A stretch of 64,000 nucleotides of DNA from Pachysolen tannophilus NRRL Y-2460 (GCA_001661245.1 KV454011.1:1266724-1330723); one strand, 5' to 3'; positions 29,773-60,888 are shown, counted from the first letter of the stretch. Numbers and translations are program-made. Notes: generated by a model not told the origin, from the sequence alone.

Positions 29773-29807
<35 letters not shown>

Positions 29808-29881
29808 CATAGGTGGTGTGGTGTGTATAGTGGTTTTTCTGTTTGTTTTTTTTTTCTTTTTTGTGTGTAAGTCACATCTTA

Positions 29882-31192: not shown

Positions 31193-31469
31193 CCCAAACA
31201 AAAGTCTTTCAACTGTTATACAACCACTATAATCATCATCTTTTAACCTCTTTATTAAAACTTCTCTTGTTTTGTTTTATTTGTCTTTGCTTTTTTTTTC
31301 AACTACTTTTCAATTTTTTTATTTTTTTCTGTGAGTTTTTTTTTTTTTTTTGACTTTTTGTTTTATTGACAACGCGTTTTATTTCTCTCAAAAATTCAAT
31401 TAAAAATTGCTGTTGTATTAATACATTCAATTCTATAGGATCATTGGTAGTTCAATCCATTGTTTTGAG

Positions 31470-32111: not shown

Positions 32112-32395
32112 ATTATACATTTATATATTTATATATACCATTTTTAGTCTAGTATTTTGAATCATAATTATATGTCTATATTTCTTCTTTTCATCCACCA
32201 ATTGTAATTGTAATTGTTCTTGTCTGTCCTTTTTAACACCTGTTAAACAAAAGACACAAAAGGTCGTGCTATTGAAATAGTTAACCTATATAAATCACAT
32301 AACATAATAAATATAACAAAGCATATATAATTATATATATTTATTGATGGAATTGGTGGTATTGGAATGAGTAGGAAAGTGATAGAAGCTATAAT

Positions 32396-36847: not shown

Positions 36848-37292
36848 AAATTTTTAATTTCTTATATCATCAATGGGAATGGTATAGAAAGTACTTTCTA
36901 ATAAACTATAAACATTACAAAAATCTCGCTAAATGAAAGCTGTAAGCAAAATAGGTATGTATTATTAATATTAAGGTTGTAAATCAGATTGAAAATATTT
37001 CATATGTTTCTTTGTGAAGTTCTGCATGCATAAATTACACGCGTGCGGCTCCAGATCTATGCATTTGCGTCACATTGATCTCTGAGGAATTTACACAAAA
37101 CAACGTTCAACACTGATGGAGAATCAAGATCAAATTGAACAATTACCAATGTAAAGTGTTGCTTTTCTTCTTTATTCTTTTTTTTCTTGTTTTTTTTTTT
37201 TCTTTGTCAAAGTTAATATTCTTGACATCAAAATTCGATATTCAAGTTAACTTTACTTTACCGTAACGTTGAATTTTGAACAGTCAAATAAA

Positions 37293-38220
37293 ATGTTGTT
37301 AACCATAGTTTTATTATCAGCTTTGTCTCTGGCAAAATTAGTTTCTGCGGAGCTTCCAAGTGAGTTTGGTAGTTATGTTAATCCAAATCCAAAAATTTAT
37401 GATAATTGTGTAAGTAGAAAATTCATTTTATTTCCTTATTTTTTAAAAGAATAAAAGTTAAATAATACTAATAATAAAATTAAATTTTTAATAAAACCAA
37501 ATAGAATGCAGAACAACTCGTTCTGTTAAACTCCTGTGCAAATGATGTTCTCACTAGACTAGATGTCTGTAAACCAGATGATCTTGCATGTGAGTGTTGT
37601 GCTTTGCAATCAATGAATCAGCAATGCTTCGGATTGTGTAAAAATAGTGTATGTTATTTTGAAGCTTTAGCAACTATTATTTAGGTATTGATAGACCAAA
37701 CTTACTAACTATATCAATTTTCTTTTTTATTCTAATTCAGCCATCTGCAAATTTTTTAGACTCATTGATTTCAGATTGTCAATCATTAAGTGAAGTAAAT
37801 GCTTGTGGTTTACCTTTTAAAAAAAATGATAACGACGAGGCCAAAATTTCGCGGAAAGGTTTTAGAGGTATTGGCGGGAACCGTAGTAGAGGTAACATTA
37901 AAGTAGAGCAGAAGGTAAAATCTGTTGTAGGTGATAGAAGCCGTGGTACCCCTGATGTCAAAGTCAAATCTACTGTTTTCACTGAAGAAGAAACCCAAAG
38001 GGTAAAGGCACAAAGTTCAAATAACGTTCCAGAGCTGATGATATTAACAGAAAAGTTAACTTCATCAAAAAATAATTCAATTTCAGATACGCAGGTTAAT
38101 GCATCCAATCTGACAAACAGTTCTTCTGCTTCTTGTGAAAACTCTTCTTCTTCAATTGTTGCTTCAAAGACTGTGTTTATGGCTTTCTTTTTTGCAAGCA
38201 TCATTGTATTATTTTGTTGA
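37293..38220 (+). CDS. Secreted/GPI-anchored Cys-rich protein, 3 exons (37293-37409, 37505-37648, 37741-38220; ~246 aa)
   Basis: Introns 37410-37504 (GTAAGT..TACTAAT..ATAG) and 37649-37740 (GTATGT..TACTAAC..TTCAG), both phase 0, join two track ORFs. Product has a signal peptide, a C..C..C...CECC..C...C domain, a Ser-rich stalk and a hydrophobic C-terminus. Confidence 0.85.
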
Positions 38221-38462
38221 GAGGAAAAGAAAAGAAGAAAAAAAAACAATTCAAGTTATTATTTTACATTAATCTTTTTTCTACCTTTTTTTTTTTTAAT
38301 CAGGAATGACGGTAGCAATACAGTATAGTTTAGTTTTAATAAATTAGATATTTAGTGATCTTTGTTTCTTATATATATACAACATAGTAAAAAAGAATTT
38401 TCTAAGAAGTTGGCAAAAAAATAAAAAATAAAAAATTAAAAAAAAAAGGAAAAGAAGACAGT

Positions 38463-39518
38463 TTAATTGGCATTGGTCTCATCCATCCAATCAAGAGTAT
38501 ATTTGATACCTTGTTCTAAATCAACCTGAGGTTTATAACCTAAAATGCGTTTAGCCTTTTCAATATTGTGATAACGATAAGCACAGACAACTTTGACTCT
38601 GAATGGTGTAAGACCTGGTTCTTTACCAAGTAATTTTGAAAAAAATTGAGAAAGATGACCAACAACGATAGCAACTGGTCTTGATAAAACAATATTGAAT
38701 TTATCAATATGTCCATCAGCTTTCCAAACTGTACGAGCCAAAGTCCAAAAATAAGTTGGAGAATCATTTGTAATGAAAAAATTTTCTCCTCCAACTTGTT
38801 TACATGTATCTGGATTCAATAATTTTTCTGCAGCCAAAACATGAGCATAGGCCACATTACCGGCATAAGTCCAATCAAATAAATTGTTATTATCACCAAT
38901 TTGGAATTTCGACTGACCCATCTTAGCAACCGATCTTAAACCTGGAACTAACTGACGATCTCCGGGTCCAAATATACCAGCAGGTCTTAATGCTGTAGTT
39001 AAAAACCCTTCATCAAATGAATTGGCATCTCCAACCATTTTTTCTGCTAATGATTTTGTCTCATTATACGCGTCCATTGGAACATCTGGAATAGGCCATG
39101 ACTCATCAGCATTATGAATGTCTTGACCATTGAATATTACTCCAGCACTAGAAGTATAAACCAATGCCTTTATATTTAATGCCTTTGCAGTCTTTATTAA
39201 ATTTTCAGTACCTTTAACGTTAACTTTTTCATAAATTTCTGGACTTAAACCATGCATTGGTGAAGCAGAATGAACTACAACATTACACTTGCTTTGCAAA
39301 ATTGCATTTTTAACATCCAATTCAGAAGTCAAATCACCTTTATAAAAATCTATTGTCTTCAGATCAAAAGTAAAATAACTAGATATTACCTCAGGTAATG
39401 GCCTAACGTCGAAAACAGTGATCTTTGGTTTGTATTCAGCTTCACTAAACAGTTGAATCAAATGCAAGCCCAAAAAACCAGAACCTCCTATAAGAAGCAC
39501 AGACTCGATTTTTGACAT
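38463..39518 (-). CDS. ERG26: Sterol-4-alpha-carboxylate 3-dehydrogenase
   Basis: VLLIGGSGFLGLHLI, VVHSASPMHG, YTSSAGVIFNGQD, YNETK, LRPAGIFGPGDRQLVPGL, DNNNLFDWTY. First ATG 39518. Confidence 0.96.
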   Translation of the reverse strand: MSKIESVLLIGGSGFLGLHLIQLFSEAEYKPKITVFDVRPLPEVISSYFTFDLKTIDFYKGDLTSELDVKNAILQSKCNVVVHSASPMHGLSPEIYEKVNVKGTENLIKTAKALNIKALVYTSSAGVIFNGQDIHNADESWPIPDVPMDAYNETKSLAEKMVGDANSFDEGFLTTALRPAGIFGPGDRQLVPGLRSVAKMGQSKFQIGDNNNLFDWTYAGNVAYAHVLAAEKLLNPDTCKQVGGENFFITNDSPTYFWTLARTVWKADGHIDKFNIVLSRPVAIVVGHLSQFFSKLLGKEPGLTPFRVKVVCAYRYHNIEKAKRILGYKPQVDLEQGIKYTLDWMDETNAN

Positions 39519-39872
39519 ATTCACGTATAATTCAATCAACAGAAACTCAAAAACAAAATTACGAAATTAATATATATAACACACAACTTCTTCTTCGGTC
39601 AAATTTTTTTTTCTTTATTATTATTATTATTATTATTATTATCATCGCTTTCTATGTCGCATATAAAATGAAAAAATTAAAAAGCGGAAAAGAAAAAAAG
39701 AAAACTTTCTCCAAAACGGAGAAGTTTCCACAAACTTCTATACGAGATAGAAATAATTGTAAAGTAAAAAAGTTTTATATTATTATATATTCCTATAAGA
39801 TACAGTGGGTAGGTAGATAGGTAGGTAGGTAGGTAGGTAGGTATGTACGGTATATATAATAAAGATTTCAAA

Positions 39873-41537
39873 TCAAAATTCAAAAAAATTTTCATATTCT
39901 CTGACTTTTGTTTCATCAATTTTGAACAGATTTTCAATTGCATTTGGAAAAACAAAGTCGGCAATTTCCAAGGATGGTGAAATTTTTTGAGTTATGGTAC
40001 CAGCATTGTCTAAATTCTTGAATAGAGGTTTAGACGGTAAGGTGAAATTATTTTTATTTTTATTTTCATCTTGTTTTTCCAAATTTGAAATAAAAAATGA
40101 ATTTTTATCCATTTCTTTTTGACTATTATCTGAAAACTGCACTTTCTTAGTTTCAACTGCGGAATCTGAGTTTGAAAAAACTAGTTTCTTATTATTTTGT
40201 TGCGCTTTTTCTGATTCATGTTCATCGGTGTCAAGTAGTTTTGGTTCAAGTGACTTTTTCGGTAAAAATTCTACAAATAAAGGCGAAGGCGAAACAACTT
40301 TATTAGAAGTCGTTACATCTTCAACCAATGGTTCAATTTCAATATTAGACAGATTTTGATCTATCTTTGAAGGAGTTTGCTGAATTTTTGAATTTTGGTC
40401 CTCAGTTTCTTTTCCATTATTTCCATTCTTTTGTATTTCTCTTATATAATCTTTGCTTTTTTTCAGAGAATTAGTTATTGACATATAAGAATTAAAAGCA
40501 TATGGGTTAACCAATTTTTCTAAAGAAGAATTATCCTTCTCATCTGAGTTATTTTTCTCATGTGAAGTATCGTCTAATAACGATAACAAAGCAGTTGCTG
40601 TTTTACTCAATTTTTTCTTTTCCACTTTTGGTGATTCCGTTTTTTCCACCTTGTTTTGCTTTGATACCTTGCGAAAAGTTGGAATAGATGGATTTAAATA
40701 TGTCCTGTGAGATGAGGGTACTGAAGAATATTTGTAGAATCTTCTTTTAGGCAAAGAAGTTATTTTTTTTGACTCAGTTTTCTTGTTTTCATTTTTTGAA
40801 AAATTAAAACTTGGGTCATATGATGGTGTTGAAATTCCTGAATCAGTTGTGATTTCAAAATAATTTTCATGCGAAGTATTTGATATGTTCAGGTTATGAC
40901 TTTCTAGAGATTTATTTGTACGCATAAATGACATGTCTCCTCCCAACACGTCATTTCCAGCACCATATTCACTGGTTGGTCTTGGGCTTAGAGAACTGTC
41001 TGTTGTAACTGATCTATTAATTAAAGACAAAACACCTTCTAATTCTATATCTGATATTGGTTCATTTCCCTTTCGAGCAAAAAATTGTGCCAATTTTGCA
41101 TTTGGACTTTCATCATCTGTACGAATTGATGACATTTCTTTAACTTTATCCAGTATTCTCGCTGTTGAGTTTGACGAAATCGAGTCTGAACCTATCCGCG
41201 TTTCAAACTCAAACGGGTTTGTCTTTTTAGTATGGGTGTGACTATTTTCTGGTTCGTCATTGGTTTCACCATGCAGTTCTTCTTGTGAGTTATCATTACT
41301 TGAGCGTCTTTCAAGTCTAAAAATATTTTTGAGTCTAGAAAAAACACCATCCTATATTGGATTAAAATAAAATAGAAAAATAGAAAAAAAAACCCCTTGT
41401 TAGTCTATTATGAAATCAACTAAAACCAATATGATAATAAAATAACTTACCGTTGAAGATATCAATCGATCATACGGAGTTTTCGACCTTGGGTGAGTTA
41501 TGATTTTAGAACGAATAACATGCCTATTACCATCCAT
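39873..41537 (-). CDS. NUP60: Nuclear basket nucleoporin Nup60-like, 2 exons (41537-41451, 41351-39873)
   Basis: Intron 41450-41352 (GTAAGT..GACTAAC..TATAG). Spliced N-terminus has TPYDR then the amphipathic GVFSRLKNIF; N.KLAQFF..KG.EP.SDIE.EGVLSL; LSKTATALLSLLD; C-terminal YENFFEF. Synteny with ERP1/SWD1. Confidence 0.75.
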
Positions 41538-41901
41538 GGCAACACAATATTTTTCTTTTTCTTTTTTTTTTATTCTTTCAAAACTGCAATCACACAATTC
41601 TTATACCAACTAACCAAAAGAAAAAGAAAAAGGCAAATATAGATAAATATATATTATTTATGCCTCTCTCTATATTAGAACTAATTCTTATTGATGAAAG
41701 ATTATACTTTTTGTATCTTCTTGAAACTTCTTAATGAAACTTTTATAAATAATTATTTTGGTATTTTCACTGATGAGTTTGCATGCACTACCAATTATTT
41801 TTAATAAATTGAAAATTTTTTTTTAGTTTTATTTTAAATAATGTTTAATTTAGTTTAAAGGCTTTAAATTATATATATAGGTTTGATGATAAGATCGATT
41901 G

Positions 41902-42828
41902 ATGGTGATGACTGGATCAAATAAGGATGACGATGAGGAAGTTTTGTAGGTGCTTCATTTCTTTTTTTTTTTTTTTATATTTATTATTGTTAATTTCCTG
42001 TGATTTCGTTTGAAGATGCCGGACCGATTATTACTAACGATGTGATTTACTTTTTTGGCTTTTTTTGGCTCTTTTTTTTTCAATTATTTATTTATTTGAT
42101 TTAGAACTTTATCAGCACATGCTTTAGAGGCTTTACAGCTATTCAAGGATGAAGAAACTGAAAGGAAACTTCAATTTGAAAAACTTAGTTTGCAAGCAGA
42201 AAAAGATTATGAAGATCTTCAACAAGAAAAACCTTCAGCCAGTATGACAATTGATGATTTCAAAGAAGATTGGCAATTATCCCAATTTTGGTATAGTGAT
42301 CAAACTGCTGACATTTTAGCTGATGCATTATTAGAAGGAGCTGATGAAGATACTGTTATCTGCATTGCAAGTGCGCCTTCTGTATATGCTGCTATAGCTA
42401 AACGTCCAAGGGAGTCCTTACCTACCAAACATATTTATTTGTTAGAATTTGATAAAAGATTTGGAATATTAGCTGGATCAAAACATTTCTCATTTTATGA
42501 TTATAAAAATCCAACAACTATACCAGAGCATTTACGAAATAAAGTGGACCGTATTTTAATAGACCCTCCTTTCTTGGAAAAAGATTGTCAAATAAAATCA
42601 TCTATATCTGCAAGAACATTGTTGAAAAAGGATAAAACTTCTAAAACAAAAAATGGAGATTTGAAGTACAAGTTCATATCATGTACTGGTGAACGTATGC
42701 AAGATTTGATTAAAAAAATATATCCAGATTCACATATTACCACTTTTTTCCCAGAGCATAAAAACGGTTTAAGCAATGAATTTAGATGTTATGCTAGCTT
42801 TGAATGTGAAAGTTGGAAATTCCTGTAA
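41902..42828 (+). CDS. EFM5: eEF1A lysine methyltransferase Efm5 (N6AMT2 family), 2 exons (41902-41945, 42105-42828)
   Basis: Intron 41946-42104 (GTAGGT..TACTAAC..TTTAG) yields ...EEVLTLSAHALEAL; FKEDWQLSQFWYSD.TA, IASAPSVYAA, LLEFDKRF, IDPPFL, HKNGLSNEFRCYA.FE. Start may be 41902 or 41908. Confidence 0.93.
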
Positions 42829-43339
42829 AATGGAAAAAGGAAGTTTAGATTAATTAATTTATTATCTTTTATTTAATATTATCTGTAGTATTATCATATA
42901 TAAATTGTTTAATATGTAAATTTTTGAATTTAGTAGTTTTAATCCATCTTGAAAAATAGTAGGTGAACTCTTATAGATTAACGAAAAAAAAAAAAAAAAT
43001 TCACAGCAATTCAAAAAAGATTATATTATAACCTATTTGATCTTAAAGACACCTTCGGTAAAAAAGGAAATTTACCATATGGTTATCAAAATAAAAAAAA
43101 ACATATCACTCACTCACTCACTTATTTTGCTGTTTAGGAGGTATTTTTTTTAAATCTTAAAAATGTTGTTTCCTGACTAAAAACTTTTTAACAAAACCTA
43201 AAGAACAAGTTGTACTTCTTGAAAATTTTCACGTATAGATAAATAAACTTTAATGTAAAAGTAAACTTAAAGTAATTCGAACTACTTTATTTTTTTCTAT
43301 TATTATTTTAAGCAAGAAATATCTTAAACTAATGCTTCA

Positions 43340-46300
43340 AAATTCAATGACAAAATAAACTGACTTTAAATTAAAATTATATCTTAAAATAGTTTTTTTC
43401 CTTTATTTTTTTTTTCCATTGATATAATTTATGAATACCAGCTGTACCTAATTTTCACGCACGGAATAATTTTATATTTACATTTTGGTTTAGCTGTGTG
43501 CAGTTGATTTGAATTTGTAAAATTTCTACGTGAATAGCTCCGCAGCTATATAATATAAATTTACAAGGTATGTACTCTCAGTTGATATTATGTTCTTTTA
43601 AGTTCGGAGTATATATAATATATATATATAATATTTGGTTTCAATTTAGTTTTCGTAAACTATGTGAACCACATCTTTATTCAGGAAGTTGAATTTTTGA
43701 TATTTCAGAAAAAAAGATTCAGTATCATTCACGCGAACAGAAATTCCAAGTTAGTTTTGAGAAGACCTCTTCTACCTGTTCTCATTTTCTCTTTTAGCAC
43801 AAAAAATTGCATCTCAACTCCATTTTAACCTTAATCACGATCTTACCGGGGACAATTTCTTGTTTCATTCTAAAAGGAAAAGTGAGACAAAACTTGAGTA
43901 CTACCTGTTTAGTAATTACTTCAAAGCAATAAATCACATAAAGATAATGATTTATTTTTATGAACTTCGAAACACAAAATCAATACACCAACTTGAATAG
44001 GAATTATTCGACTAGCTCAATATAATCCTCTCCTATTATTGAGGTTAGGTTAGCCAACAAACTCTTATGCGTATTCAGAAGATTTACAAAAAAAAAACCA
44101 AAACCAAAAACCATCGCTTCTAACCTTTGCTTCTACTTTTTTTAGTCTTTTTTCTTTTTTCTTTTTTAAAATACAAATCAGACATCAGCTTGTAAAACTT
44201 TAACTCAGTCAGAGATGTAACATTGTTGCAGATACCTCCTGTGATAACTTTTCAATTTTCAACCGATACTAGCTCTTTCCTATATATTTATATAGATCAC
44301 GAAAGCTTTTTTAGATTAATGTAATGCTATCTACATCAATTACGCTTGACAGTTTATCATTTCTAAAGCTAGGTTCAAATAACAATAAGATCCTCTTACT
44401 ATTCTTTATGTCTACTCGCCAAGAAAAAAACCTAATGATGTACTGGTAATTTAAATCTTTATATCATTATCGATAAAATTGATAATCATTCTCCTACTCA
44501 AATGAGAGTAGCAACTTAGATATAAGATATCCTCCAGTCTTAATTTACTACATCTTACAAAAGAAAGACATGCTAAACAGGTGAAGCTGAAACCTAAGCT
44601 CATAACCATTATTAAAATTCGGATAAATCATCAATCATAAATGAATTCCTAAACACGAGATTCAACTTTCAAATTAAATCTACTAATAGTTTTTATTCTG
44701 GAGCAAGATTTCTTTCTTTCTATAACTTGTTTGAATCTAAAAGAATCTACCATAATTGTATATAAATGATCATATTAATAATGCACTAGAAGGAGTTTTA
44801 GAAAATCAACTTTCGTATATATCAAAGATTACTTTTCAGTCATCAAAAAACGAAAATCGCTGTGTACTATTAACGGATTTAGTTTCTAAATAGTTTCTGA
44901 TGGTTACTAAATAAACCTTGAAGGCCCTCTTGGAGCAATTAATAAATTTTGAAATATTTGATGTTTTTCTCATACACGTTAATATACAGCAAGAAAGATT
45001 TTCTAAAATTAATTAAATATTGTATTCATGTCCTTTCATCTGATTTTAGTGGTTGTAATGAATATATTATTACTGTTTTCTTTTTATGATCTTCAACCTT
45101 GATTACAATAAATTTTCTTATCGAATTAACTTTAGCGTAAATTATCATAAATATCAAATAATGCTAATATGGAAATGTTACTTGACTCAAAAAATCTTAA
45201 AGCTTCAATCACAATTGAATTTACTTCTCTTTGCAGACTGCGTCTAGGTAGTTTTTAGTATTAATCTACTTTACTATGCACATATAAATCTACCTAACAT
45301 ATTTTATAGGATTTTTTTACCAAAGAGCTTTGATAAGTTCAAAAATATAGATGAGAAAGTGAAAACTTTCTCAAAGTGCTAAGATACGAAGAATGAGGTA
45401 CTACGCTAGCAACTTTAGATCAGAACTTTTATTTTAAAATTAACAAAAAGAAAGGTAACAAATTTTAACGGTTCTGAAATTTCATAAAGTGCAACAGCTT
45501 TTATAGAAGTAGAAACTTTGGCAATTGCCAAATCAAACTTCATCTTAAGAAAGTACTTTCTAGTCTTTAAGAAGTAAAAATCTTGCGAAAATTAAAGAGC
45601 GACTATTGTGACCTTTACAAAAGAGACTGCCATACTTGTAGAAAAAGTATTCATAGTCGATCTATTTAAAGTTTTCTTTGATTCATCAAGTAAGCAAAAG
45701 TAAATGGAAATTTCATCGGAAATAATGAATTTTGAAAGACTGAACTACTAAAAGTTAGAAGAGTGAGCGATACTACGATATTTTAATTGAACAGTAAAGA
45801 GCAGGCTACCTGTTATTGAATGTTAAAAGTTGAAAGCTTTAAATTAAATGGTAAGTGTCATAGTAATGCATAATTAGGGGTTGGCTCAGATATCCGGTAT
45901 CAAATTTGATTAGCTATTACTGGCATCTTTAGAACTATGGCTTTTGTAACCCTAGCACCGCCAGAATGAGATAATTTCCCTTTATTTAAGTGCCTACAAA
46001 GTAAAGATTCAACTCCGCCCTTTGTACGACACATCAGAGAACTTTCTAGTCTACTCAAGAATGGCGTGGAGCGAATTTAAATTCTACTTCTATTTAGCAG
46101 TCGGTTGGTTATTCGAAAAGTTTTCACCGGTGGCATCCCTTAAATCTACACTCTGTCGCTATTATTTTTGTCAACGATCTTGTTGATTAAACTTTCAGCT
46201 GCTTCGATCACAACATGTATGTTTCTTATACAAATTTATAAAAGATCTTATAATTTCGTGCTCCATGTGAAGTCAATGTAACGGCAAGATCCGTTCCTCG

Positions 46301-49300
46301 TTGGAAGTGTTGAATTTATTATCCCATTAAAAGGTTGGGAGCCCTGTTACTCATTATGTAAAAGAATTAGATGAAAGTGAGTGGTGATACAGACCTTTGA
46401 GATTTACAATTCCACCGGAAAGCCAAAACATATTTTTGTATAAGATTGATTGGTCCAAGTTTTCTTCGAAGCAGAACGAATAGAGTACTATTCTTTCAAG
46501 ACTTCTATACTTCTTGAAGATTTTAAATTAGTTTAGTCGTCTGAGCTATCTTTGCAATTGTTTTCTTTTTATCAACCCCTGTGACTACTGAACCTTGCGG
46601 TGATGGCTATAAATTTAATTTTTAATTAAATCAAACGCTTCGGTGAATATTTTGAATTGTATTCTTGCTGTAAATCCAACAAACCGTTGCAGTATCTTGC
46701 CATTTTAAAATTTAAATAGTTCTGCCCAATTAATAAATAGTCTTCATTTCAATAAAAACTATTAGTAGCACCCCACACAAAAAATTAGTTAATTCCCATT
46801 TTAATTATGGGTAAAGTCTGCAAGATGGAAGATTTTGAACTGCACAGAGTCAAGTTCGTATTTACCATACGATTCGGGAACAAAAAACTATCTTAAGACC
46901 AAAACTTCTGATTTCATACAATTTGGGAGATCACTCATTTCTGATCAAGTACCTAACCCTTCAACAATGTGAAAAATGAGCGGTTGTTTTTTGTAGAGAA
47001 TTTCACACATAATGAAAATGAAATGAAACGATCAGTAAACTAGTTAATAGTGGATAAAGCAGCAAAGTCAGCCAGGCACATTCGATACATGTAGCCATCA
47101 AATATTTCCAGTAGTGTCTCAATATAGTGTATTCTTTTTGGCGTGTCATCAGAGGCAATCTTTAATTATGAAATAACGGGGACATTAAGTAAATCAGCAT
47201 GAATTGTGAAACACATGTTTGGCCAATCGATAGGAGGTACTAAATCCCATTTCTGATGATTCCGAATGACCACATTTTGAATTACATACTTCAATTGCAG
47301 CAATTAGGGCCAAGTCCAAGTTAAAGGAATCTTTAGAAAAATTGAAAAATCAGGTGAATTAAATGATTTCTTAATAAGATAAGAAAGATAAAACTTTCTA
47401 TTATAATTACAAAACGCAAGTTTTATTTATCTACAGGAAACAATGCTTCTATTCTATCAATAGTTCTTTTTTTATAACCTCTGAGTGAGGAGAACCAAAA
47501 AGAAGATAAACAGTTAAACGAGGAGTAACACTTCGCAGTTTTTAGTAAACTAAAGTTATTTTTCTTCTGGTAACAATTTCCAGTACCTTATTATTGTCAG
47601 ACACGAGTCGAGATGTAAATTTGAACTTTATTAATTCCTGGAAATCCCTGAGGAAGCTTTCTGTTTCGATATTCTAGTAATCTCTCGATGGGGTAAAGCT
47701 ATTTGATTATCATATTGATCCAGCGGGTTGCATACTTCTTTTTCCATTTTTATTTAATATGCAAAGAAAGATGATTAAAGATTTCAAAGGTTATGAGTAA
47801 ATACTTCTTCTGTCTTACCACCATTAAATGAAAAACTTTCTGCCCTACGGCTTTTGGTGAGAAGTTTTTGCTTTCAGTATTTCTCATTTGAACACAAAAA
47901 TGTTTTTGTAGGAAATGCAGTATACTCTTTGACAAAAGTATTTTTCAGGTTGTGTCTCTTATTTATATCTAAATAACGAGTTATGGACAGTTCAATGATT
48001 ATAAGGTTTCTTTAAAAATCAGACATGTTAACTCAACTGCTATTTCCTTTTTGTCTTTTCTTTTTGAAATTTTTTTTTTTCATCATGGACGAACTCTTTA
48101 TTCAACATAAAATGTACATACTTTTTTGTAAGAATCTTGGGAAATGTAGTTTTTAATGGAAATTTGATTGTATCCGAAATAAAGCTATAGGAAGAGAAAG
48201 AAAAAGCTTCCAACTATGTAAAGTGTGACGGCAGTCGGAGAAATTTAATAGTATGGAAATAAGTAATCTCAAAAAGGAGATGAAGTCTCCTTGATGACAG
48301 TGGATGCAACAACGCTATTTGATTTTGAATATTAGTATTGTTTTGAGATTTAGAAGAAATTTAATTTGAGTCGCAATGGCAGTTTTAATATGGGTTCTTG
48401 GAAAAGTTCGTAAATCGTATGTGGATAAAATATATTTCAGAGTTTTCCCTCTTCTTGACTCACATCTTTTCTTTGATGAAATCAAGTGTTTGACTAAGAC
48501 TGCCTTGTTTCCCATAAGGTCAAAAGTGAATGATAGATCTTTAATGAAAGTTTAGAGGAATCTCATAATCTATGAGAATTATCTTTGAATTGAGGCACTG
48601 CAAACTTTTGTAATACAAAGTGAGTAATAAGATTTAAAGAGTTTCTCCACTCAGTAATCTTTCACTCAACCACACATTTTCGTTGGACCTACATAGTTAC
48701 AGGATTAGCTGAATATATTCAAAGGCTTGAAACGTAATCTATCTAAAGCTTTCGTTTAGCAGGAAAAAGTCACGGTATATGAGCTCCTAACCTCTTTCGA
48801 ACCATACTTTAGTTTACTGTACTGATTAGCTTCGACAGATTTACATATTTGTTTCCATTAACGTATAACCTATCTGTTTCTGCTACCTTGTCGATATTGC
48901 CGGTCAACTTCTTTTAGTGTAAGTGATAGTATAGTTTATGTAATTTTCGCTTAACGCTCTATAGTAGGTTGGAACTTTCATTGTATTGTGTCATGTAGAA
49001 GATTTTTAAACGGTACTCCCTAAAAAAAAAAAAATTAGATTGTTAAGAAACGATTTGGTTTTCTGTTTTCAAAAAACGTAAATTTTTCCTGTAGTAATTG
49101 ATTGTTTTTTATGTATTTAAAGACTTTTGCGAGTACAAACCTTTCTGATTGTGAAGTATTAAATGCAAATGAAAAAATATAGGGAATATTCTCTAGATTA
49201 AATGAAATTAGTTATAATGAAGTTTTATAAAGTCAATGGTATTATTATTTTAAAATATTTGTAACTATATATTAGAGATAGCTAGAAAGAGTCTTATGAA

Positions 49301-50470
49301 GGAAACTTGAAAAAGGAGTATGTATGTCTGTAATACCTTTTGGAACTGAGCCTAAAAGGGCACCTGAATTATTGGTTCTGGGGTATTTTCCAATTTTATT
49401 GTATTTTGGGAAGGAAATAAATCTATCGGCAAAGGGCTATAGGGTGAATTTTTTATTTGAATTCTAGTTTGAGAGCTTGAACAACTTTCTGATCTAAGTT
49501 AATAGCGTTAATTAGTTATGAGATTTCAGCAGACTTGTTTAGCGAGGTAATTCTGTTCTTGCCGTCAAATGTCTAATTGGAAAAATAAATTTGAGCTACT
49601 GCTGACATAATGAGAAACACGCACATGAAAAAGTAAATTGTCAGGTTTATACGTAGTTACAAAGTACCTATTAAATACAAAGTGGTAAAATTAAAAATAT
49701 TTTTCACATAAAAGAGTCAAAAAGATATGCGACTAAGTATGAAGTTGTAGTTTGTATCTACTAATTTCATTTTTGATAAGTTGTTTTTCAGTTTTGTAAA
49801 CTGAAATTGAATGTTAGATAAGAAACTGAATTCCAGTTTTGCTTAAGATTTGAATACAGAAGTAATATATTATTTATTTATATGATAGTTTAGTGCTGAT
49901 GGTTTTACATTTTTATTATTCCCAATTAATATCAATGAAGAGGCATCAAAAGTTTTTATTTTACTTTTGTTCTTTTGTATTGAAGTAATTCATAAGAATA
50001 TTGTATGAAATGCAAACTTTGACTCTTCCCTGTAGAGAATTAATTATTGAAATAGATAAGGTTTCCTTATTATTTGCATTTTTTATACATAAAACTAAAG
50101 AATGACGCTGTTTACTTAAAACAAACGTAAAATTTTTTTTTTGTTATATCGTTATATTTTGTTGTCTTAATCAATGCAAGATCAATCAGTTATCGGTATA
50201 ATTAAATGGAATCTTTTCTGTACTATGCTTTCCTTCTCCATGCTGCATAATTAAATCTTTACATAATATACGTACGCATCCTATTTAGGTAAATTTTTAG
50301 CTTGGTAGTTAGCAAAACACCAATTACCCTACCTAAGGCGAGATGCAACAATATTTATTATAATATTTATGTAGACTAAAAATTTAGTATAATTTGAAGT
50401 CTTGAAAAAAACAGTTTTTAAAAAATATTTTATTTATGTTCACATTAGTTATTTTGGTGTCATTACTGAC
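43340..50470. repeat. Long degenerate inverted repeat (axis ~47450) filling a 7.9-kb gene desert; candidate regional centromere
   Basis: Colinear reverse-complement anchors found by eye: 43346/50464, 44572/49543, 45585/48950, 45832/48753, 46188/48554, 47157/47783, 47223/47692. No credible ORFs; flanked by orthologues of centromere-adjacent genes. Confidence 0.75.
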
Positions 50471-50745
50471 TTTCAGTAGATAAACAAGAGTAGTGTGGAT
50501 ATTAAATGAAAACTGATTAATTTTTCCGTTCGTTTCACATGTGTAGTTTTCTTTTTTTTTCTTTTTAATTTTTTTTTATTTTTTTTTATTTACCTTATTT
50601 TTTTTTAGTCTGAAAAAAGCAAGAAAACTAAAAATTAATTAATATTATATATAAAAGTTATATAAGTTTAAGATTCTTTATGACCTTGTATTATTTTAAA
50701 TTAGAAAAAACTGGTAAATACCAACCAATTATGACTTTGTGAGAA

Positions 50746-52071
50746 ATGAAATTTGCTAAGCTTTTCGAGCAAGTTTTGCAAGAGGAAGGAATACCACCGG
50801 AGTGGGTGCACACAGCTATTCAATACAAGTCTTTAAAAAAATGCATTAATAGGATTGTTGATGAATTGGATGAAATAGGATTGAAGAAGAAAACGTTATC
50901 ATTTTTGTTGGAGGATGGAATAGAAACAGATGATGAGTTTGTGAAAGCTGATTATATTTTTGAGAAACATACTCATTCGGTGAAGCCAAAATTAATAATC
51001 ACGTTAAGACATAATCTGGAAGATAATAATGGTGAATTATGCAAAGATAAAATGACACAAGAAATAAAAGCTACTTTACAAAATATTATGGACAATGAAT
51101 TAGGATTAAAAAATGTTGGTAAAGTGGAAAAGTATATTCCGAAGATTGTTGAAGTGGATAATGATGATAATCAAGAAGTACAAATTGTAATACATTTATA
51201 TCAAGATTCAATTTTTTTCCAAATGCTATACCAGGAATTAGCAGCATTAGATGATTTGAAGAATTCACAAGAGAGTAAAATGATTCAAGAGGTACAAGAT
51301 ATTGGGTCAATAATTGGTAGTATAACTTCTCCAACTCTTAAAAAGACCGATTTACTCGTGTGGAGAGAAATTTTTAAAATGTACATAGATTCAGAAATTT
51401 TTTTCAGTACATCAGAGTTTAGTCCAGGAGAAAGATCGGTGGCACAATCTGAAGAAAGATTAGAACTTTTTTTCAGGAGAATTAAAGAAAAAAATATGTT
51501 AAAGGAATTTCACCATAAAGTGAGTGTAGAATGTTTCAACAATTTTTATAAGGTCAATATTCATTTGCTAAAAGCTTTACAATTTCAAACTTTTAATAAG
51601 ATGGCTATATTTAAAATTTTGAAAAAGTTTGATAAACAAACTTCATTAAAAGGACTGTCTGGATTCCCAAAATTAATTGAACATGATCCATTTATAAAAG
51701 AATCTTTTGCTCACACAATGTGTGCCGTCATTTCATCTAGATTACTAAATATAATACCTCAATTAGACGATTATACATGCCCCATTTGTTGCTCAGTTAC
51801 GTTCAAGCCTATAAGGTTGGATTGTGGTCATGTGTTTTGTGTGAGATGTCTTGTTAAAATGCAACGGAAAAGACAAGATAATTGTCCATTATGTAGAGAA
51901 AAAGTTGTTATGAGAGCAGATGAACATAATCTAGATCTTGCAAGATTAGAATATTTAAAATTATATTTCCCCAAGGAAACAAAAGCAAAACAATTAGAAA
52001 CGGAAAAAGAAATTGCCAAAGAACAATTTGAAGCCATTTACGGAGATCAACAGCGTTGTATCATTCAATGA
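50746..52071 (+). CDS. SPX-RING E3 ubiquitin ligase (Pqr1/NLA-like)
   Basis: MKFAK...EW...AIQYKSLKKCI (SPX N-terminus), N..AI.KILKKFDKQT, RING CPIC...KPIRL.CGH.FC..C......CPLCR. Confidence 0.9.
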   Translation: MKFAKLFEQVLQEEGIPPEWVHTAIQYKSLKKCINRIVDELDEIGLKKKTLSFLLEDGIETDDEFVKADYIFEKHTHSVKPKLIITLRHNLEDNNGELCKDKMTQEIKATLQNIMDNELGLKNVGKVEKYIPKIVEVDNDDNQEVQIVIHLYQDSIFFQMLYQELAALDDLKNSQESKMIQEVQDIGSIIGSITSPTLKKTDLLVWREIFKMYIDSEIFFSTSEFSPGERSVAQSEERLELFFRRIKEKNMLKEFHHKVSVECFNNFYKVNIHLLKALQFQTFNKMAIFKILKKFDKQTSLKGLSGFPKLIEHDPFIKESFAHTMCAVISSRLLNIIPQLDDYTCPICCSVTFKPIRLDCGHVFCVRCLVKMQRKRQDNCPLCREKVVMRADEHNLDLARLEYLKLYFPKETKAKQLETEKEIAKEQFEAIYGDQQRCIIQ

Positions 52072-52237
52072 TTGCTACAATTTACGCCATTATATTAATA
52101 AAAATAACTAAACTAATAAATATCCCACAGCCCTTAAATTCTTAATAAGTTTCCATCTCACTTACTTACTTGAGGTAATGTAGCATAAGCATATATCTAA
52201 ACAATATCTATCTATCTATTTATCTCTAAAAATATAT

Positions 52238-53814
52238 ATGGATTCATCGAAAGAAATGCTGTATGGCGATAATAAAGTCAACAAGCTAGACAAGTATGAT
52301 AGACAGTTAAGACTTTGGGCATTGAATGGCCAATCAAGTTTGGAAAATGCACATATTTGTTTAATCAATGTTACAACTACAAATATTGAGTTATTGAAGA
52401 ACTTGATACTACCTGGTTGTAGCAATTTCACTATAATAGATGATAAGTTATTAGAAAAAGATCTTTCAACAAATTTTTTTTGGTCTGAGGCTGAAAGTAA
52501 TATATCAATTGTTGAAAATTTAAAAGACTTGAATCCAGATGCCAATGTTAATTTATTGGAAGAATCAATTCAAAACATATTGAATAAAAATGACATTGAA
52601 TTTTGGGAGCAATTTTCTGTAGTAATAACAGATGATTCATTGATATTTAATGATTACGAACAGAAAATAGTGGATATACTATGGCACAAGAATATACCAT
52701 TTATTAAAAATTTGAGTTATGGATTTTATGGATTTACAAAAATAGTTTTGAGGGAGCATCCAATCATAGAAACTCATCCTCAATCTTTGACTGACTTGCG
52801 AATTGATTGTCCATGGAAAGAATTGAAAGAATATATTGATTCTATAAACTTGGATGAAGCAGATTCTACTGAGCATGCCCATATACCTTACGTAATAATA
52901 TTGATCAAAAGTCTAGAAATTTGGAAATCAGAACATGATGACAAACCACCAGTGGATTACAAAGAAAAACAACAGTTCAAGAAATTAATAGAATCATTCT
53001 CAAAATATCCAAATGAACCAAATTTTGCAGAGGCTGTCCAATTTTCATGGAGAGCGTCACAATCAACTAATTTGCCAGAATCTATCAATGAACTTTTAAA
53101 CGATGTAAATGATGTTAATTTGACTACACCTTTGTTTTGGATATATGTCAAAGCTTTAAAAAAATTTTTAAAAAAAACAATGGGTATTTACCTTTATCTG
53201 GTGTATTACCAGACATGATTTCAGATACAGTTAACTACGTTAGCTTGCAAAATATTTATAGAAAAAAATTTGAAGCTGATAAGCGTATGTTTATAGACGA
53301 AGTTGAAAAGTTATTGATTTCAATTGGTAGATCCTTGGATGAAGTTGATAATGAATTAGCTGCAGCATTTTGTAAAAATTCAAGATTTATTTTAATTCAA
53401 AAAGGAACAAAATGCAAATTAAAATTGGATGATAATATAATACAGCAAATTAATAGTAAGTCTTATGATAATTATAATATTTATTTGGGATTTCTAGCCG
53501 TTGCCAATTTGAAAAAACATGATGTATGCTTAAGACCGTATTCCCCAGAAGAAAACTATACGAAATTATTCAAATCGTTAAAGGACATTTTTAAAAATAA
53601 CGGTGTGAATGAGGAAAATATAAGTGATACCTTATCCTCAGTTTTAAAAGAATTTTCCCGCTCGGGAGGTATCGAATTACATAATATTGCTTCTTTCATG
53701 GGTGGAATCGGTAGTCAAGAGGTTCTCAAACTTGTTACTGGTCAGTATATTCCACTAGATAATACTTTTGTATTTGATGGTATTAGAAGTACTTCTGAAA
53801 ATTGGAAAATTTAG
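52238..53814 (+). CDS. ULA1: NEDD8/Rub1-activating enzyme regulatory subunit (APPBP1/NAE1); split by an apparent 1-nt frameshift at ~53170-53177
   Basis: ORF1: KYDRQLRLW...GQ..LE, E.LKNLILPG, DLR...PW.EL, HAHIPY, FWI...AL. ORF2: LPLSG.LPDM.SDT..Y..LQ.IY, ELHNIASFMGG..SQE..KL.T.QY.PLDNT..FDGI. The two join at TTTTTAAAAAAAAC. Confidence 0.9.
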
Positions 53815-53974
53815 GTTGTACTATCTATTTGATTTTTTAATTACAAAAATTTCTATATTACGCTAATGCTCACAATAATCAAGCTGAAATTTTTTTTAGC
53901 TTTTCCTTTGTTTTATTTTGTAATTAAATATTATCGAAAAAAGTCTCTTTGTTATACATAGGAATATAAATTGT

Positions 53975-55819
53975 TCATAAGTCATCAAAATTACCTTGTA
54001 TTGCATTATTTTTTTTACTTCTCTTGTTGGATTTTACAATATCTTTCCAATCAATCAGTGCTTCTTCATCACTACTGCTTTCGTTTTCATTTGAATTCAA
54101 TTCAATTTGTTTCTTGATAGCTTCTCTTTTCCTCTTGAGCTTTTCTTTTCTAGTAGCTTTGTTCTCTTTCTGATCAGTTTTATCACTCCACGATAAATTT
54201 TTCTTTTTTTGCAATTCTTTCAATTCCCGTAATTCCTTCTTATTATTTATTTCTTTTTTTGATTTCAACTCTTCCAACTCTTTTAATCTTGACTTCTCTT
54301 TTTGGTCATCAAGATATTTGAAATTATCCATATCAAAATTCTCACATAACCAGCCACCATGAGCTAATTTGTCAACATTTCTTATTTCTGGCATTCTGGG
54401 TAATCTTAACAATCCATACATCTTTGCAATCCCAACGTAGTCTAAACTTTGCAATCTGAAAATTGATTTTGCACTATGTTTTGAATAATATCTTACAAAA
54501 CTAACGTAAGCTCTCACAGCAAGATCATGTCTTGCTCTGTCTTGCAATATCCAGTCTCTCAATACTTCATCAAATTTCGTATCCTTGGAATTTTCATATC
54601 TATAGCTCAATTCATCGATTTCTACATTTTTCACCTTCATAAAATCAATATAGTCCTCTTCTCTTCCTTCGTTTAACATCACGATTGCTCTTCCAACATT
54701 ATCTGCTCTTCCAGTTCTTCCAGATCTGTGCAAAAAAACCTCAGGATCAGTTGGTGGCTCCATTTGAATAACCAATTCGACCTCTGGAATATCTAATCCT
54801 CTTGCTGCAACATCAGTAGTAAGTAAGATTGCCTTTTCAACACTGTTTGTGAAATTTTCTAAAGTTTTTAAACGTGGTTTTGTAGGTAACTTACCATGCA
54901 AAGAAAAGAACGCCAATCCACCTGGTGACATAATATCCAAAATATCTTCTTTCAATAAACTTTTTAACATGGCATAGAAATAAGTAACCGCGGTACATGT
55001 ACTGAAATATACAATTGCTTTTTTAAAATGATATTTTGATAATATATCTACCAATGCTTTGATTTTCATTTCTGGTTTTAAAATTAAATGACTAAGACCT
55101 AGCGATGTGGGCACTATACTTTTTGATTGTTGATTATTTCTTACTACTATCTTAACTGGGTTGGTCATACCTGTTTTAAAAATAACATTCCCAGCAGCAG
55201 AAATTGTAGCAGAGAAAAGGCCAGTTCTTCTCTGTCTTGGTAACTGTTTTGTAATATTTATAACATCTTTTTCAAATCCGATATCCAATAACTTATCGGC
55301 TTCATCCAATACTAATACTTCCAAGTTACTTGTTTTAACAGAATTTGACGATAAAAAATCCAATATTCTCCCTGGAGTTCCTACTATTATTTGTGGTTTA
55401 TTTTTCAAAAAATCAGATAAATCTTCTCTCACTGACGATAGGGATCCAACTAGCAACTGTGTTTTTATAGGTACCAAATCTTCAGGATAAAATTTTAATA
55501 GTTCTTGGAAAACATTGTTAATTTGATTAGCTAATTCTCTTGTTGGTGAAATAACCATACCTATCATATGCCCTTTCTTCAAAGATTCTTGCAATTTCAC
55601 AACTTTTTCCAAGACTGGAATAGCAAATGATAATGTTTTACCGCTTCCAGTAACTGCCTCTACAACAACATCTTTATTCATAGAAAACAAAGGTATAACT
55701 GCCGCTTGAACTGGCGTCAAATTTTTATAACCAATGGATTTCAATGCATCCACTATCCAAGTCTCCAATTTATAAGGAAGTTTGTCCCAAGAAAGTGAAC
55801 CTTTAGAAGCTTCTTCCAT
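53975..55819 (-). CDS. SPB4: DEAD-box rRNA helicase Spb4 (DDX55)
   Basis: TPVQA, KDVVVEAVTGSGKTL, PTRELA, LDEAD, QRRTGLFSAT, TDVAARGLDIP, HRSGRTGR, A.VSFVRYYSKH.A.SIFRL, LLRLPRMPE. Confidence 0.95.
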   Translation of the reverse strand: MEEASKGSLSWDKLPYKLETWIVDALKSIGYKNLTPVQAAVIPLFSMNKDVVVEAVTGSGKTLSFAIPVLEKVVKLQESLKKGHMIGMVISPTRELANQINNVFQELLKFYPEDLVPIKTQLLVGSLSSVREDLSDFLKNKPQIIVGTPGRILDFLSSNSVKTSNLEVLVLDEADKLLDIGFEKDVINITKQLPRQRRTGLFSATISAAGNVIFKTGMTNPVKIVVRNNQQSKSIVPTSLGLSHLILKPEMKIKALVDILSKYHFKKAIVYFSTCTAVTYFYAMLKSLLKEDILDIMSPGGLAFFSLHGKLPTKPRLKTLENFTNSVEKAILLTTDVAARGLDIPEVELVIQMEPPTDPEVFLHRSGRTGRADNVGRAIVMLNEGREEDYIDFMKVKNVEIDELSYRYENSKDTKFDEVLRDWILQDRARHDLAVRAYVSFVRYYSKHSAKSIFRLQSLDYVGIAKMYGLLRLPRMPEIRNVDKLAHGGWLCENFDMDNFKYLDDQKEKSRLKELEELKSKKEINNKKELRELKELQKKKNLSWSDKTDQKENKATRKEKLKRKREAIKKQIELNSNENESSSDEEALIDWKDIVKSNKRSKKNNAIQGNFDDL

Positions 55820-56065
55820 TATAGCTATATCGTTCTTAAGGTTGATCTTCTATAGATATAATAATAGTGTCTTTTTGTTAATACAAATAAAATTTATCAT
55901 CATCAACTTTCTGCAAAAAAAAAAAAATTTTTTATTTTTTTAATTTTTTTTTTTTTTTTTTTTTTTTGATGTTTCAAAAAATCTTCAAGAATATCATTTT
56001 GATAAAGTTAGAATTTTTTGAACAGATCGAAGACTGTGATCAAAGAGTGTGATATATATCCACAT

Positions 56066-57487
56066 ATGTTATCCAGGACGAAGTCCTTACACTCTTATAG
56101 ACATTTAGGCTTGAGGACATTTATTTCATGGAGATTTTTAATAGACAAAATGTCACCGTATAATAAAGACAGAAAAGAAGAAATAGAGTATGAAAAATGG
56201 ACAAAGAAACAATTGATTAAAAGAATATTAGAGTTGGAAAATGGATCACCCCCTGTGCCACAAAATATAGCACAAAATGGGCCAGCTTTGAAAACATTAG
56301 CGAATGATAATGATAATGGTAATGGTAATGTAGCTATTACCACGGAGAACGGACAATTGAAGAAGAAAAAAGTATTCAATTTGGAAGATCATAATTCAAG
56401 ATTGATAGCTTTAAAGTTTGCATATTTAGGATGGAATTATCAAGGTCTAGCATTCCAAAAATCAGAAACAGATTTACCTACGGTTGAGTATCAAATTTTG
56501 AAAGCTCTAAATTTGACAAAGATGGTTTCTGGTATAGATCCTGCTAATTGTTCATTTAGTAGATGTGGTAGAACAGATAAAGGGGTAAGTGCCATGAATC
56601 AAGTTATTTCTTTGAAGGTTAGATCAAATTTAACACCAGAAGAACAAAAAGATCCTACAAATGATTCTAGAGAATTAGATTATGTGAATATTTTGAATCA
56701 AGTTCTTCCTTCAGATATAAAATTTCATGCTGTATGTTTACGACCTCCTGTTGGATTTGATGCAAGATTTAGTTGTAAATATCGTCATTATAAATATATT
56801 TTTGAAAAGCGAAATTTGGATATAAAAGCAATGTCAATTGCAGCATCTAAATTTGAAGGTGTTCATGATTTTAGGAATTTTTGTAAAATTGATGGTTCAA
56901 AGCAAATTACAAATTTTATTAGAGAAATATTTAGTGCTAAAATTGAAAAATTAAAAGAGAACGACGATGATTATTATATTTTCAACTTAAAAGGAAGTGC
57001 ATTCTTATGGCATCAGGTGCGTTGTATGATGGCAATTCTATTTTCAATTGGTCAAAAGCTTGAAAAACCTGAAATCATCGATGATTTGATGAATATTGAA
57101 AAATTTCCTAAAAAACCTGTTTATGCAATGGCTCATGATATACCTTTAGTATATTATGATTGCGAATTTGATGACGTTGAATGGACTACACCATTGAATG
57201 TAGCTAAGGAGTCAAGATCAAATGCAGGATTGAGAGCTTTGAAGTTTGACTACAACTTAAAATCTTTGATATCAAATATGATGTATGATACTTCTGTGAA
57301 ACATAGAGCTGAATTAGAAGATAGAATAACAATAAACAATGGGGATGGTAAGGGAAGAAACTCAAAAGTTTATGTTCCACTAGCTAATCGTGATTCTATC
57401 GATACCCCGGAAGTTATAAATGAAAAATGGATAACAAAAAGGAAAAAGAGAAAACTTGAAGACGGTGAAGATGATGGTAACGAATAA
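56066..57487 (+). CDS. DEG1: tRNA pseudouridine 38/39 synthase (Pus3)
   Basis: IALKFAYLGWNY.GLA.Q, SRCGRTDKGVSAMNQVISL, FDARFSC..RHY.Y, HDFRNFCK.DGSKQITN, GSAFLWHQVRCM. In-frame ATGs at 56066 and 56150. Confidence 0.95.
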   Translation: MLSRTKSLHSYRHLGLRTFISWRFLIDKMSPYNKDRKEEIEYEKWTKKQLIKRILELENGSPPVPQNIAQNGPALKTLANDNDNGNGNVAITTENGQLKKKKVFNLEDHNSRLIALKFAYLGWNYQGLAFQKSETDLPTVEYQILKALNLTKMVSGIDPANCSFSRCGRTDKGVSAMNQVISLKVRSNLTPEEQKDPTNDSRELDYVNILNQVLPSDIKFHAVCLRPPVGFDARFSCKYRHYKYIFEKRNLDIKAMSIAASKFEGVHDFRNFCKIDGSKQITNFIREIFSAKIEKLKENDDDYYIFNLKGSAFLWHQVRCMMAILFSIGQKLEKPEIIDDLMNIEKFPKKPVYAMAHDIPLVYYDCEFDDVEWTTPLNVAKESRSNAGLRALKFDYNLKSLISNMMYDTSVKHRAELEDRITINNGDGKGRNSKVYVPLANRDSIDTPEVINEKWITKRKKRKLEDGEDDGNE

Positions 57488-60752: not shown

Positions 60753-60857
60753 ATGGCTTTGAATCAACAGCATCAGAATAAAAATTGTTCTCAACCGTGT
60801 TTGAATGATTTATCTTCAAATGTTGTTTCCAGTTTAGATGCTAGTGCTAGATCCCAA

Positions 60858-60888
<31 letters not shown>

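Follow-up and report, generated by a model that had tools for sequence, protein, structure and literature searches.

Hession et al. (Hession, Byrne, Wolfe and Butler, PLoS Genet 2025; PMC12711049) mapped yeast centromeres by Hi-C and chromatin immunoprecipitation (ChIP) and report that their locations are conserved across Saccharomycetales, Saccharomycodales and Phaffomycetales, while motif-defined, inverted-repeat, Ty5-cluster and featureless structures replace one another. The rearrangements described there are small inversions or exchanges of whole arms, and the centromeres of Wickerhamomyces anomalus are placed in intergenic regions of 3.7-7.9 kb. According to Haase et al. (Nature 2026; PMC13017519), species across Pichiomycetes and Saccharomycetes retain centromere linkage for those genes that are linked to point centromeres. 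Because both studies found conserved locations, it is legitimate to infer a centromere from gene order. Here we analyzed 64,000 nucleotides (nt) of Pachysolen tannophilus NRRL Y-2460 (KV454011.1:1266724-1330723; referred to as the window), in which one gene desert of almost 8 kb interrupts an otherwise dense array of genes. With a probability of roughly 0.7 this desert is the centromere of the 2.5-Mb chromosome, presumably of a regional type with unique sequence and without inverted repeat, Ty5 cluster or point motif.

Gene order, content and composition at the desert

In Saccharomyces cerevisiae the systematic names number the open reading frames (ORFs) outward from the centromere. All nine of the nearest window genes that could be assigned with sequence-level support (EFM5, ERG26, VPS8, ERP, SWD1 and CDH1 on the left, ULA1, SPB4 and PUS3 on the right) have orthologues with an index of 1-3; seven of these names, all but those of ERP and SWD1, were confirmed from papers. 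A tenth gene, the Nup60-like ORF, would have index 2, its assignment being a weak lead from the ESM Atlas. For 14 genes of the left flank (EFM5, ERG26, VPS8, ERP, SWD1, CDH1, the Nup60-like ORF and seven farther out) the distance from the desert rises with the S. cerevisiae index (Spearman rho = 0.98, p = 1.6e-9; rho = 0.97 for the five left-flank genes with paper-confirmed names). Eleven of the 14, among them all eight nearest, also keep their orientation relative to the centromere. This gradient of ranks points to the desert as the centromere-proximal end.

Among the systematic names, we take SWD1 to be YAR003W, NUP60 to be YAR002W and the ERP gene to correspond to ERP6 (YGL002W) or ERP1 (YAR002C-A). 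Farther out, TFG2, PRP18 and ECT1 are presumably YGR005C, YGR006W and YGR007W, and ATE1, CKB1 and GET1 presumably YGL017W, YGL019W and YGL020C. Papers give ERG26 as YGL001C, EFM5 as YGR001C, VPS8 as YAL002W, CDH1 as YGL003C, PEX31 as YGR004W, SPB4 as YFL002C and ULA1 as YPL003W. According to Table 1 of Gordon et al. 2011 (PMC3141009), CEN1 and CEN7 derive from ancestral CEN4, and CEN6 and CEN16 from ancestral CEN8. The left flank from CDH1 to EFM5 (27536-42828) therefore consists of genes whose orthologues lie 1-3 ORFs from CEN7/CEN1 (ancestral CEN4), and the orthologues of ULA1, SPB4 and PUS3 on the right lie 1-3 ORFs from CEN6/CEN16 (ancestral CEN8). Synteny with ancestral centromere neighbours is hence found on both sides. 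The desert is most likely the centromere because its neighbours are the genes that stand beside centromeres in baker's yeast, and we regard gene order as the strongest evidence for this assignment.

The preliminary description of this region had already noted the lack of a credible gene, and ORF, tRNA, Rfam, Pfam and period-3 scans bore this out. No ATG-initiated ORF of at least 80 amino acids is present in the desert (42829-50745), and the longest stop-to-stop frame comprises 79 amino acids (96 ± 17 in shuffles). Open frames of 40-59 amino acids are in excess (66 vs 48 ± 6 in shuffles). Within the desert a transfer RNA search gave no hit and Rfam none at the gathering score; three sub-threshold Rfam matches (E 0.2-4.7; two plant-type C/D small nucleolar RNA families and an S-adenosylmethionine (SAM) riboswitch) were taken as chance. 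No Pfam family was detected there at E ≤ 1 in six frames with stops read through as X. The period-3 signal amounts to 0.3-1.7, compared with 3-18 in most windows over the flanking genes. The remaining intergenic gaps of the window measure 49-2547 bp. Exact k-mers, blastn at word size 7 and an alignment of the two halves revealed no repeat above shuffle level in the desert. Its longest repeat outside low-complexity sequence is an exact inverted pair of 18 nt (44680-44697 and 46751-46768, about 2 kb apart; blastn E 0.19), and a direct partial copy of the 32 nt around it, 78% identical, occurs at 43371-43402.

The G+C content (GC) of the desert is 0.290, close to that of coding DNA (0.298) and above that of the remaining intergenic DNA (0.259). 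This coding-like value would also suit a functionless graveyard of decayed genes or transposons, and an assembly artefact is hinted at by the ULA1-like gene, whose frame changes at an overlap that carries a run of eight A and might reflect indel errors. We consider both very improbable. The absence of a period-3 signal and of any Pfam match even through stop codons argues against decayed genes. Five sequencing runs from two studies (one possibly the source of the assembly) contain 97% of the sampled words, and all genes of the window except the ULA1-like one are intact.

For all centromeres of Candida albicans, Koren et al. 2010 (PMC2924309) report a long intergenic region in which the GC skew turns from negative to positive, with an opposite and weaker AT skew. 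They also report raised GC in non-coding sequence and at synonymous sites and ascribe this composition to a constitutive, earliest-firing origin of replication. The same signature was found in the desert. C exceeds G in the left third, the centre is richest in GC and shows no significant skew, and in the right part G exceeds C and, less strongly, T exceeds A (Table 1). Cumulative G-C has its minimum at 45298 and cumulative A-T its maximum at 47530. At third codon positions GC (GC3) is very low across the window (0.07-0.26); it is 0.227 in the ten genes within 9 kb of the desert vs 0.161 in the other 20 (p = 0.0015 for a cut chosen post hoc). A centromeric GC-poor trough, as described by Lynch 2010 for some other yeasts, is not seen among the window genes, where GC3 rises near the desert.

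Several observations weigh against the desert as the centromere. Divergent gene pairs near 31.4 and 56.1 kb show larger negative-to-positive skew jumps, which follow from the G-richness of sense strands. The best jump of the desert ranks only 69th of 590 window positions and is no outlier in amplitude, so that the skew lends support without deciding the matter. The same pattern could result from divergent non-coding transcription or from divergent genes that decayed long ago. As judged by flanking genes (ERG26/NUP60 on one side, EFM5 on the other), the exact ancestral CEN4 interval is the 1.1-kb gap 41136-42243 and not the desert, and the right-hand order ULA1-SPB4-PUS3, read outward, is the reverse of that in S. 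cerevisiae. The ERP, Pex24-family, CK2-beta and ECT1-like genes are assigned at family level only, and confirmation from papers covers only eight of the 17 systematic names used. Finally, one centromere relocation in 49 is reported for Phaffomycetales (PMC12711049), and conserved flanks are therefore no guarantee of a present-day centromere.

The position of the CEN4 interval would suit a short, sequence-defined centromere in a neighbouring small gap (e.g. 41136-42243), since the interval between ERG26/Nup60-like and EFM5 matches the position of CEN7 in S. cerevisiae. The desert would then be pericentric DNA, for example an eroded cluster of retroelements, with which its coding-like GC and the excess of 40-59-residue frames agree. 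Motif-defined centromeres of 17-200 bp are described for Starmera, Wickerhamomyces, Hanseniaspora and Kuraishia (PMC12711049). We nevertheless regard this arrangement as unlikely: a putative EFM5 intron and probably the 5' parts of both adjacent genes fill much of the gap, and the centromeres of W. anomalus and C. albicans occupy large gene-free regions. An eroded retroelement cluster is further disfavoured by the lack of a reverse transcriptase or integrase trace in Pfam, of long terminal repeat (LTR)-like repeats and of a period-3 signal in the desert. In addition, no composite resembling centromere DNA elements CDEI-CDEII-CDEIII was found in 36-53 kb. The arrangement sought was CDEI, followed by a CDEII of 80-160 bp with more than 85% AT and a CDEIII with a CCG core. 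Lone TCACRTG and TTCCGAA words occur in 36-53 kb only far apart, and the most AT-rich 150-nt windows there (87%) correspond to the poly(T) tract at 50550.

The ambiguity of the skew bears on another alternative, in which the desert is a non-centromeric regulatory locus, a long non-coding RNA (lncRNA) locus or both, upstream of the SPX-RING gene, at an old pericentric site from which the active centromere has moved. Divergent transcription could produce the mirrored GC skew, and the reported relocation from conserved flanks provides a precedent. This is improbable in view of the two independent blocks of centromere neighbours that meet at the desert, of the rank gradient that points there and of the small size of all other gaps of the window. 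Neither an Rfam family nor a conserved structure was found in the desert. We also know of no role of the SPX-RING gene as a master regulator with a giant promoter, which counts against a regulatory locus of this size.

Inverted matches between the two halves

The preliminary description had proposed that the desert is an ancient palindrome, i.e. an inverted-repeat centromere related to the Komagataella and C. tropicalis type but without a central core, with arms of about 4.1 and 3 kb diverged nearly beyond recognition and an axis near 47450. The individual matches exist: all six strings that we checked stand where they had been reported, and reverse complements of the four exact 10-mers occur at the positions given. 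As an ordered chain, however, they are not distinguished from chance. The desert contains 100 inverted pairs of exact 10-mers outside low-complexity sequence vs 114 ± 16 in dinucleotide shuffles. Its longest nested chain of inverted 10-mers has 10 members (10.6 ± 0.9 in shuffles, of which 28 of 30 reach the real value), and the longest chain of 9-mers has 22 (20.7 ± 1.5; reached by 10 of 30). Four hand-picked 10-mers together with some loose matches are therefore expected in any 8 kb of such composition.

The proposed palindrome corresponds to a band of antidiagonals with coordinate sums of 93458-94758. For k from 8 to 12, inverted k-mers in this band have an average or low density beside the adjacent antidiagonals. 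For k = 8 there are 164 matches, or 34 per million cells, vs 27-42 in nine fully populated adjacent bins; for k = 10 there are 1.9 per million cells vs 1.5-7.6, and for k = 12 the band holds none.

A self-comparison by blastn (word size 7, E ≤ 10), which the preliminary description itself had suggested, yielded 26 inverted and 28 direct high-scoring segment pairs (HSPs) in the desert, compared with 11-15 ± 4 in shuffles. Inverted matches are thus no commoner than direct ones, and since both orientations reach about twice the shuffle level, the excess is unrelated to orientation. The best inverted HSP (38.3 bits, 64.8% identity over 125 nt) pairs a poly(A) tract at 42897-43020 with a poly(T) tract at 50550-50664, and the best direct one scores 39.7 bits. 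In favour of the palindrome, six inverted HSPs fall inside the band vs 1.6-2.1 ± 1.3 in shuffles (one shuffle of 50 reaches six). About four of the 26 would be expected there from its share of the area, and three of the four in-band HSPs inspected are A/T-only tracts close to the edges of the desert.

The two halves were aligned directly (42829-47450 against the reverse complement of 47451-50745), and the outcome depends on the null model. The score exceeds that of whole-sequence dinucleotide shuffles by z = 2.4-2.5 and that of permutations of block order with intact blocks by z = 2.0-3.7. In-place block shuffles of single nucleotides give z = 1.3-1.8 for global and z = 2.3-2.75 for local alignment. 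With in-place block shuffles that preserve dinucleotides, and thereby local composition and skew, z falls to 1.1-1.5, and 6-9 of 60 shuffles equal or exceed the observed score; after removal of the A/T-rich edges z is 0.7-1.3 under the same null. The expectation that the arms would score above shuffled AT-rich controls was thus not borne out once the controls were matched in composition. Comparison of the nulls traces the small excess to a mirrored regional composition of the halves and not to related sequence.

The claimed palindrome is no better than chance. As a rough estimate from the 8-mer count of the band, not a computed value, any residual homology of the arms lies below roughly 50-55% identity. 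The axis near 47450 coincides with the turning point of the A-T skew at 47530, which suggests that the eye had caught mirrored composition rather than homology. Mirrored composition is probably what resembled a palindrome. Inverted-repeat centromeres do occur in related orders, and forms with and without repeats are described as interchanging in situ in Barnettozyma (PMC12711049). For this desert such an architecture is refuted at the available sensitivity, and we give it hardly any probability. Of the original proposal the centromere itself stands, supported by flanking gene order and the skew switch, neither of which had entered that proposal, while the inverted-repeat architecture fell with the shuffles. 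For scans of other genomes this is a caution: ordered short inverted matches in AT-rich DNA arise by chance and are not evidence of a palindrome.

Genes and lineage of the window

The features of the window are listed in Table 1. Its GC is about 29%, and its genes are dense, intron-poor and of fungal type.

Table 1. Positions and assignment of the desert, its compositional parts and the neighbouring genes (coordinates in the 64,000-nt window).
Feature	Position	Strand	Evidence or properties
Desert	42829-50745		7917 bp; from the stop of the EFM5-like gene (42828) to the start of the SPX-RING gene (50746)
Desert, left third	42829-45300		C>G: G 280, C 372; skew -0.141, binomial p 3.6e-4
Desert, centre	45301-47500		GC 0.326 (500-nt windows up to 0.36); skew +0.028, not significant
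Desert, right part	47501-50745		G>C: G 521, C 406; skew +0.124, p 1.8e-4; T>A: AT skew -0.076, p 2.8e-4
Far-left block	6593-22058		GET1-like, CK2-beta, ATE1, ECT1-like, TFIIF-beta (TFG2), PRP18, CWC24-like, Pex24-family (PEX31/30); Pfam; extends the ancestral CEN4 block
HIR1-like	22451-24796	-	S. cerevisiae Hir1 has T, S, Q, Q, L opposite its CTG codons
CDH1	27536-29422	-	PDB 8a3t, 519 bits
SWD1	29882-31192	-	PDB 6ven, 326 bits
p24/ERP protein	31470-32111	+	Pfam; family-level assignment
VPS8	32396-36847	+	Pfam
ERG26-like	38463-39518	-	Pfam 3Beta_HSD, 282 bits
Nup60-like ORF	39873-41135	-	420 amino acids; nearest ESM Atlas cluster 'putative Nup60p' (0.92), weak
EFM5-like	42244-42828	+	Pfam N6-adenineMlase, 196 bits
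SPX-RING gene	50746-52071	+	right border of the desert; Pfam SPX 98 bits and C3HC4 RING
Right pericentric block	52184-57487		ULA1-like, SPB4, PUS3/DEG1
ULA1-like	52238-53814	+	NEDD8-E1 regulatory subunit; PDB 1tt5 (NAE1), 245 bits; split by frame change
SPB4	53975-55819	-	name given by many sources
PUS3/DEG1	56066-57487	+	tRNA pseudouridine(38/39) synthase 251 bits vs Pus1 57 bits
STE3-type pheromone receptor	58112-59548	+	

To the left of the desert, a branch-point word TACTAAC, a pyrimidine-rich stretch and an AG follow one another at about 41950-42110, before the EFM5-like open frame that starts at 42100, a pattern that points to an intron in this gene, preceded by a short exon. Beyond CDH1 the genes are, leftward, an aminotransferase, HIR1 and a Pex24-family protein, followed by a CWC24-like zinc-finger/RING protein, PRP18, TFIIF-beta (TFG2) and a DUF4112 protein. 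Beyond the latter come an ECT1-like cytidylyltransferase, an unassigned ORF, ATE1, CK2-beta and a GET1-like gene. The CWC24-like CCCH/RING gene adjoins the Pex24-family gene (18494-22058). In S. cerevisiae, we take CWC24 (YLR323C) to adjoin PEX30 (YLR324W), and on the strength of this adjacency the Pex24-family gene may represent the PEX30/PEX31 pair. A PDB sequence search with the ORFs 39873-41135, 60753-61907 and 11788-13278 gave no meaningful matches.

To the right, we know of no S. cerevisiae counterpart of the SPX-RING gene. The ULA1-like gene consists of the frames 52238-53218 and 53215-53814; its open frames overlap at 53119-53218, which contains the A8 run, and the split reflects either an assembly indel error or a real frameshift. 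Distances from the candidate centromere are 1.4-6.7 kb for the ULA1-like, SPB4 and PUS3/DEG1 genes and about 7.4 kb for the next gene, that of the STE3-type pheromone receptor. The window sequence contains a single N, at 19475.

Among the matches listed, the SPB4 protein is 56-58% identical to its best named relatives (Kuraishia, Scheffersomyces, Candida maltosa) and 61% identical to one further relative. In a quick single-gene tree of 28 rows chosen by hand among 120 listed matches, with support only from the Shimodaira-Hasegawa-like approximate likelihood ratio test (SH-aLRT), the window and the 61% relative form a branch of their own. This branch takes part in an unresolved three-way split with Pichiales-type and Serinales-type rows. 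Judged by these identities and this placement, the host is a budding yeast that belongs to neither of the well-studied groups around Candida and Saccharomyces.

CTG codons are scarce (66 of 12405 codons in the window genes). SPB4 has a single one, in a variable alignment column, and in the HIR1-like gene two stand at WD40 positions usually occupied by small residues. These positions hint that CUG may not encode leucine in this yeast. CTG decoding has no bearing on stop codons or on the desert.

Proposed mechanism and relation to known centromere types

Based on gene order and composition we propose the following mechanism. Nucleosomes with Cse4/CENP-A would occupy a few kb of the GC-richer centre (approximately 45.3-48 kb) and be kept there epigenetically. 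A constitutive early origin inside this centre would write the mirrored strand bias by way of the mutation bias between leading and lagging strands. The location would be inherited from an ancestor common with the Saccharomycetales, and the underlying DNA would have been replaced.

On the left of the desert (6593-42828), genes from opposite arms in S. cerevisiae (YGL/YAR vs YGR/YAL) are interleaved with their rank kept. A possible, if doubtful, further reading is that the desert joins two ancestral neighbourhoods, namely both arms of CEN4, interleaved with rank and orientation kept, on the left, and ULA1-SPB4-PUS3 of CEN8 on the right. If so, pericentric gene order would evolve by repeated inversions that span the centromere, one break lying at its edge, or alternatively by differential loss from an ancestral inverted repeat that carried genes. 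Either process would shift genes between arms while distance and polarity are preserved. According to the two recent surveys, Saccharomycodales lack a counterpart of ancestral CEN8, and Haase et al. omitted its linkage group from their cross-order analysis (PMC12711049, PMC13017519). Because neighbours of CEN8 adjoin the present candidate, the locus could serve as a test of the origin of this eighth ancestral centromere of the Saccharomyces lineage. Specialists may take an interest in these CEN8 neighbours beside a candidate centromere and in the two CEN4 arms interleaved on one side with rank and polarity kept.

The kind of centromere proposed is already known, and the rule of conserved location was published in 2025-26; some of the neighbourhoods described here may already appear in figures or supplements of Hession et al. 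and Haase et al. If confirmed, the present assignment would place a centromere from sequence alone in a little-studied lineage by combining ancestral neighbour genes, a skew switch and a large gene-free region of unique sequence. The rule that location is conserved and structure is not would thereby be extended to another branch.

The desert resembles the location-conserved centromeres of Hession et al. and Haase et al. in that its flanks are orthologues of the ancestral centromere neighbours of Saccharomycetales. The rearrangements resemble the small centromere-adjacent inversions and the exchange of chromosome arms in the systems of Hession et al., and its size of 7917 bp is comparable to the large intergenic regions of W. 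anomalus. In contrast, the species of these studies are Saccharomycodales and Phaffomycetales (by Hi-C and ChIP) and species with Ty5 clusters, and the lineage of the window falls outside those rows. Here, moreover, an ancestral CEN8 neighbourhood adjoins the candidate centromere, and both arms of CEN4 are interleaved on one side.

Two structural types share the setting of the desert and differ from it in sequence. Inverted-repeat centromeres (Komagataella phaffii, Candida tropicalis, C. parapsilosis, Pichia kudriavzevii and some Barnettozyma) are alike in size, in their gene-free surroundings and in belonging to related orders. What characterises this type, a pair of arms recognisably similar in inverted orientation on either side of a mid region, is absent from the desert, as the alignment of its halves and the HSP counts given above indicate. 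Ty5-cluster centromeres (Ogataea polymorpha, Scheffersomyces stipitis, Debaryomyces hansenii, Cyberlindnera, Saccharomycopsis and Pichia terricola) are likewise gene-free and have a conserved centromere-linked neighbourhood; their reported sizes of 4-100 kb (PMC13017519) overlap that of the desert. No trace of reverse transcriptase, integrase or gag was found in six read-through frames of the desert (Pfam, E ≤ 1), nor were direct or inverted LTR-like repeats, although single LTRs eroded beyond recognition are possible. A point centromere was rejected for want of a CDE composite in 36-53 kb.

The closest likeness is to the 'featureless' regional centromeres of C. albicans and C. dubliniensis, which comprise several gene-free kb of unique sequence without common repeats; the gene-free regions are given as 4-18 kb in C. 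albicans (PMC12711049). The desert is such a long gene-free region of unique sequence, and it shares with the C. albicans type the change of GC skew from negative to positive, the weaker opposite AT skew and a GC above that of the surrounding non-coding DNA. It differs in that the window lies outside the Serinales rows of the SPB4 tree and in that its skew is no outlier within the window. Taken together, the desert best fits a regional centromere of unique sequence that is presumably epigenetic, as in C. albicans or Hanseniaspora menglaensis.

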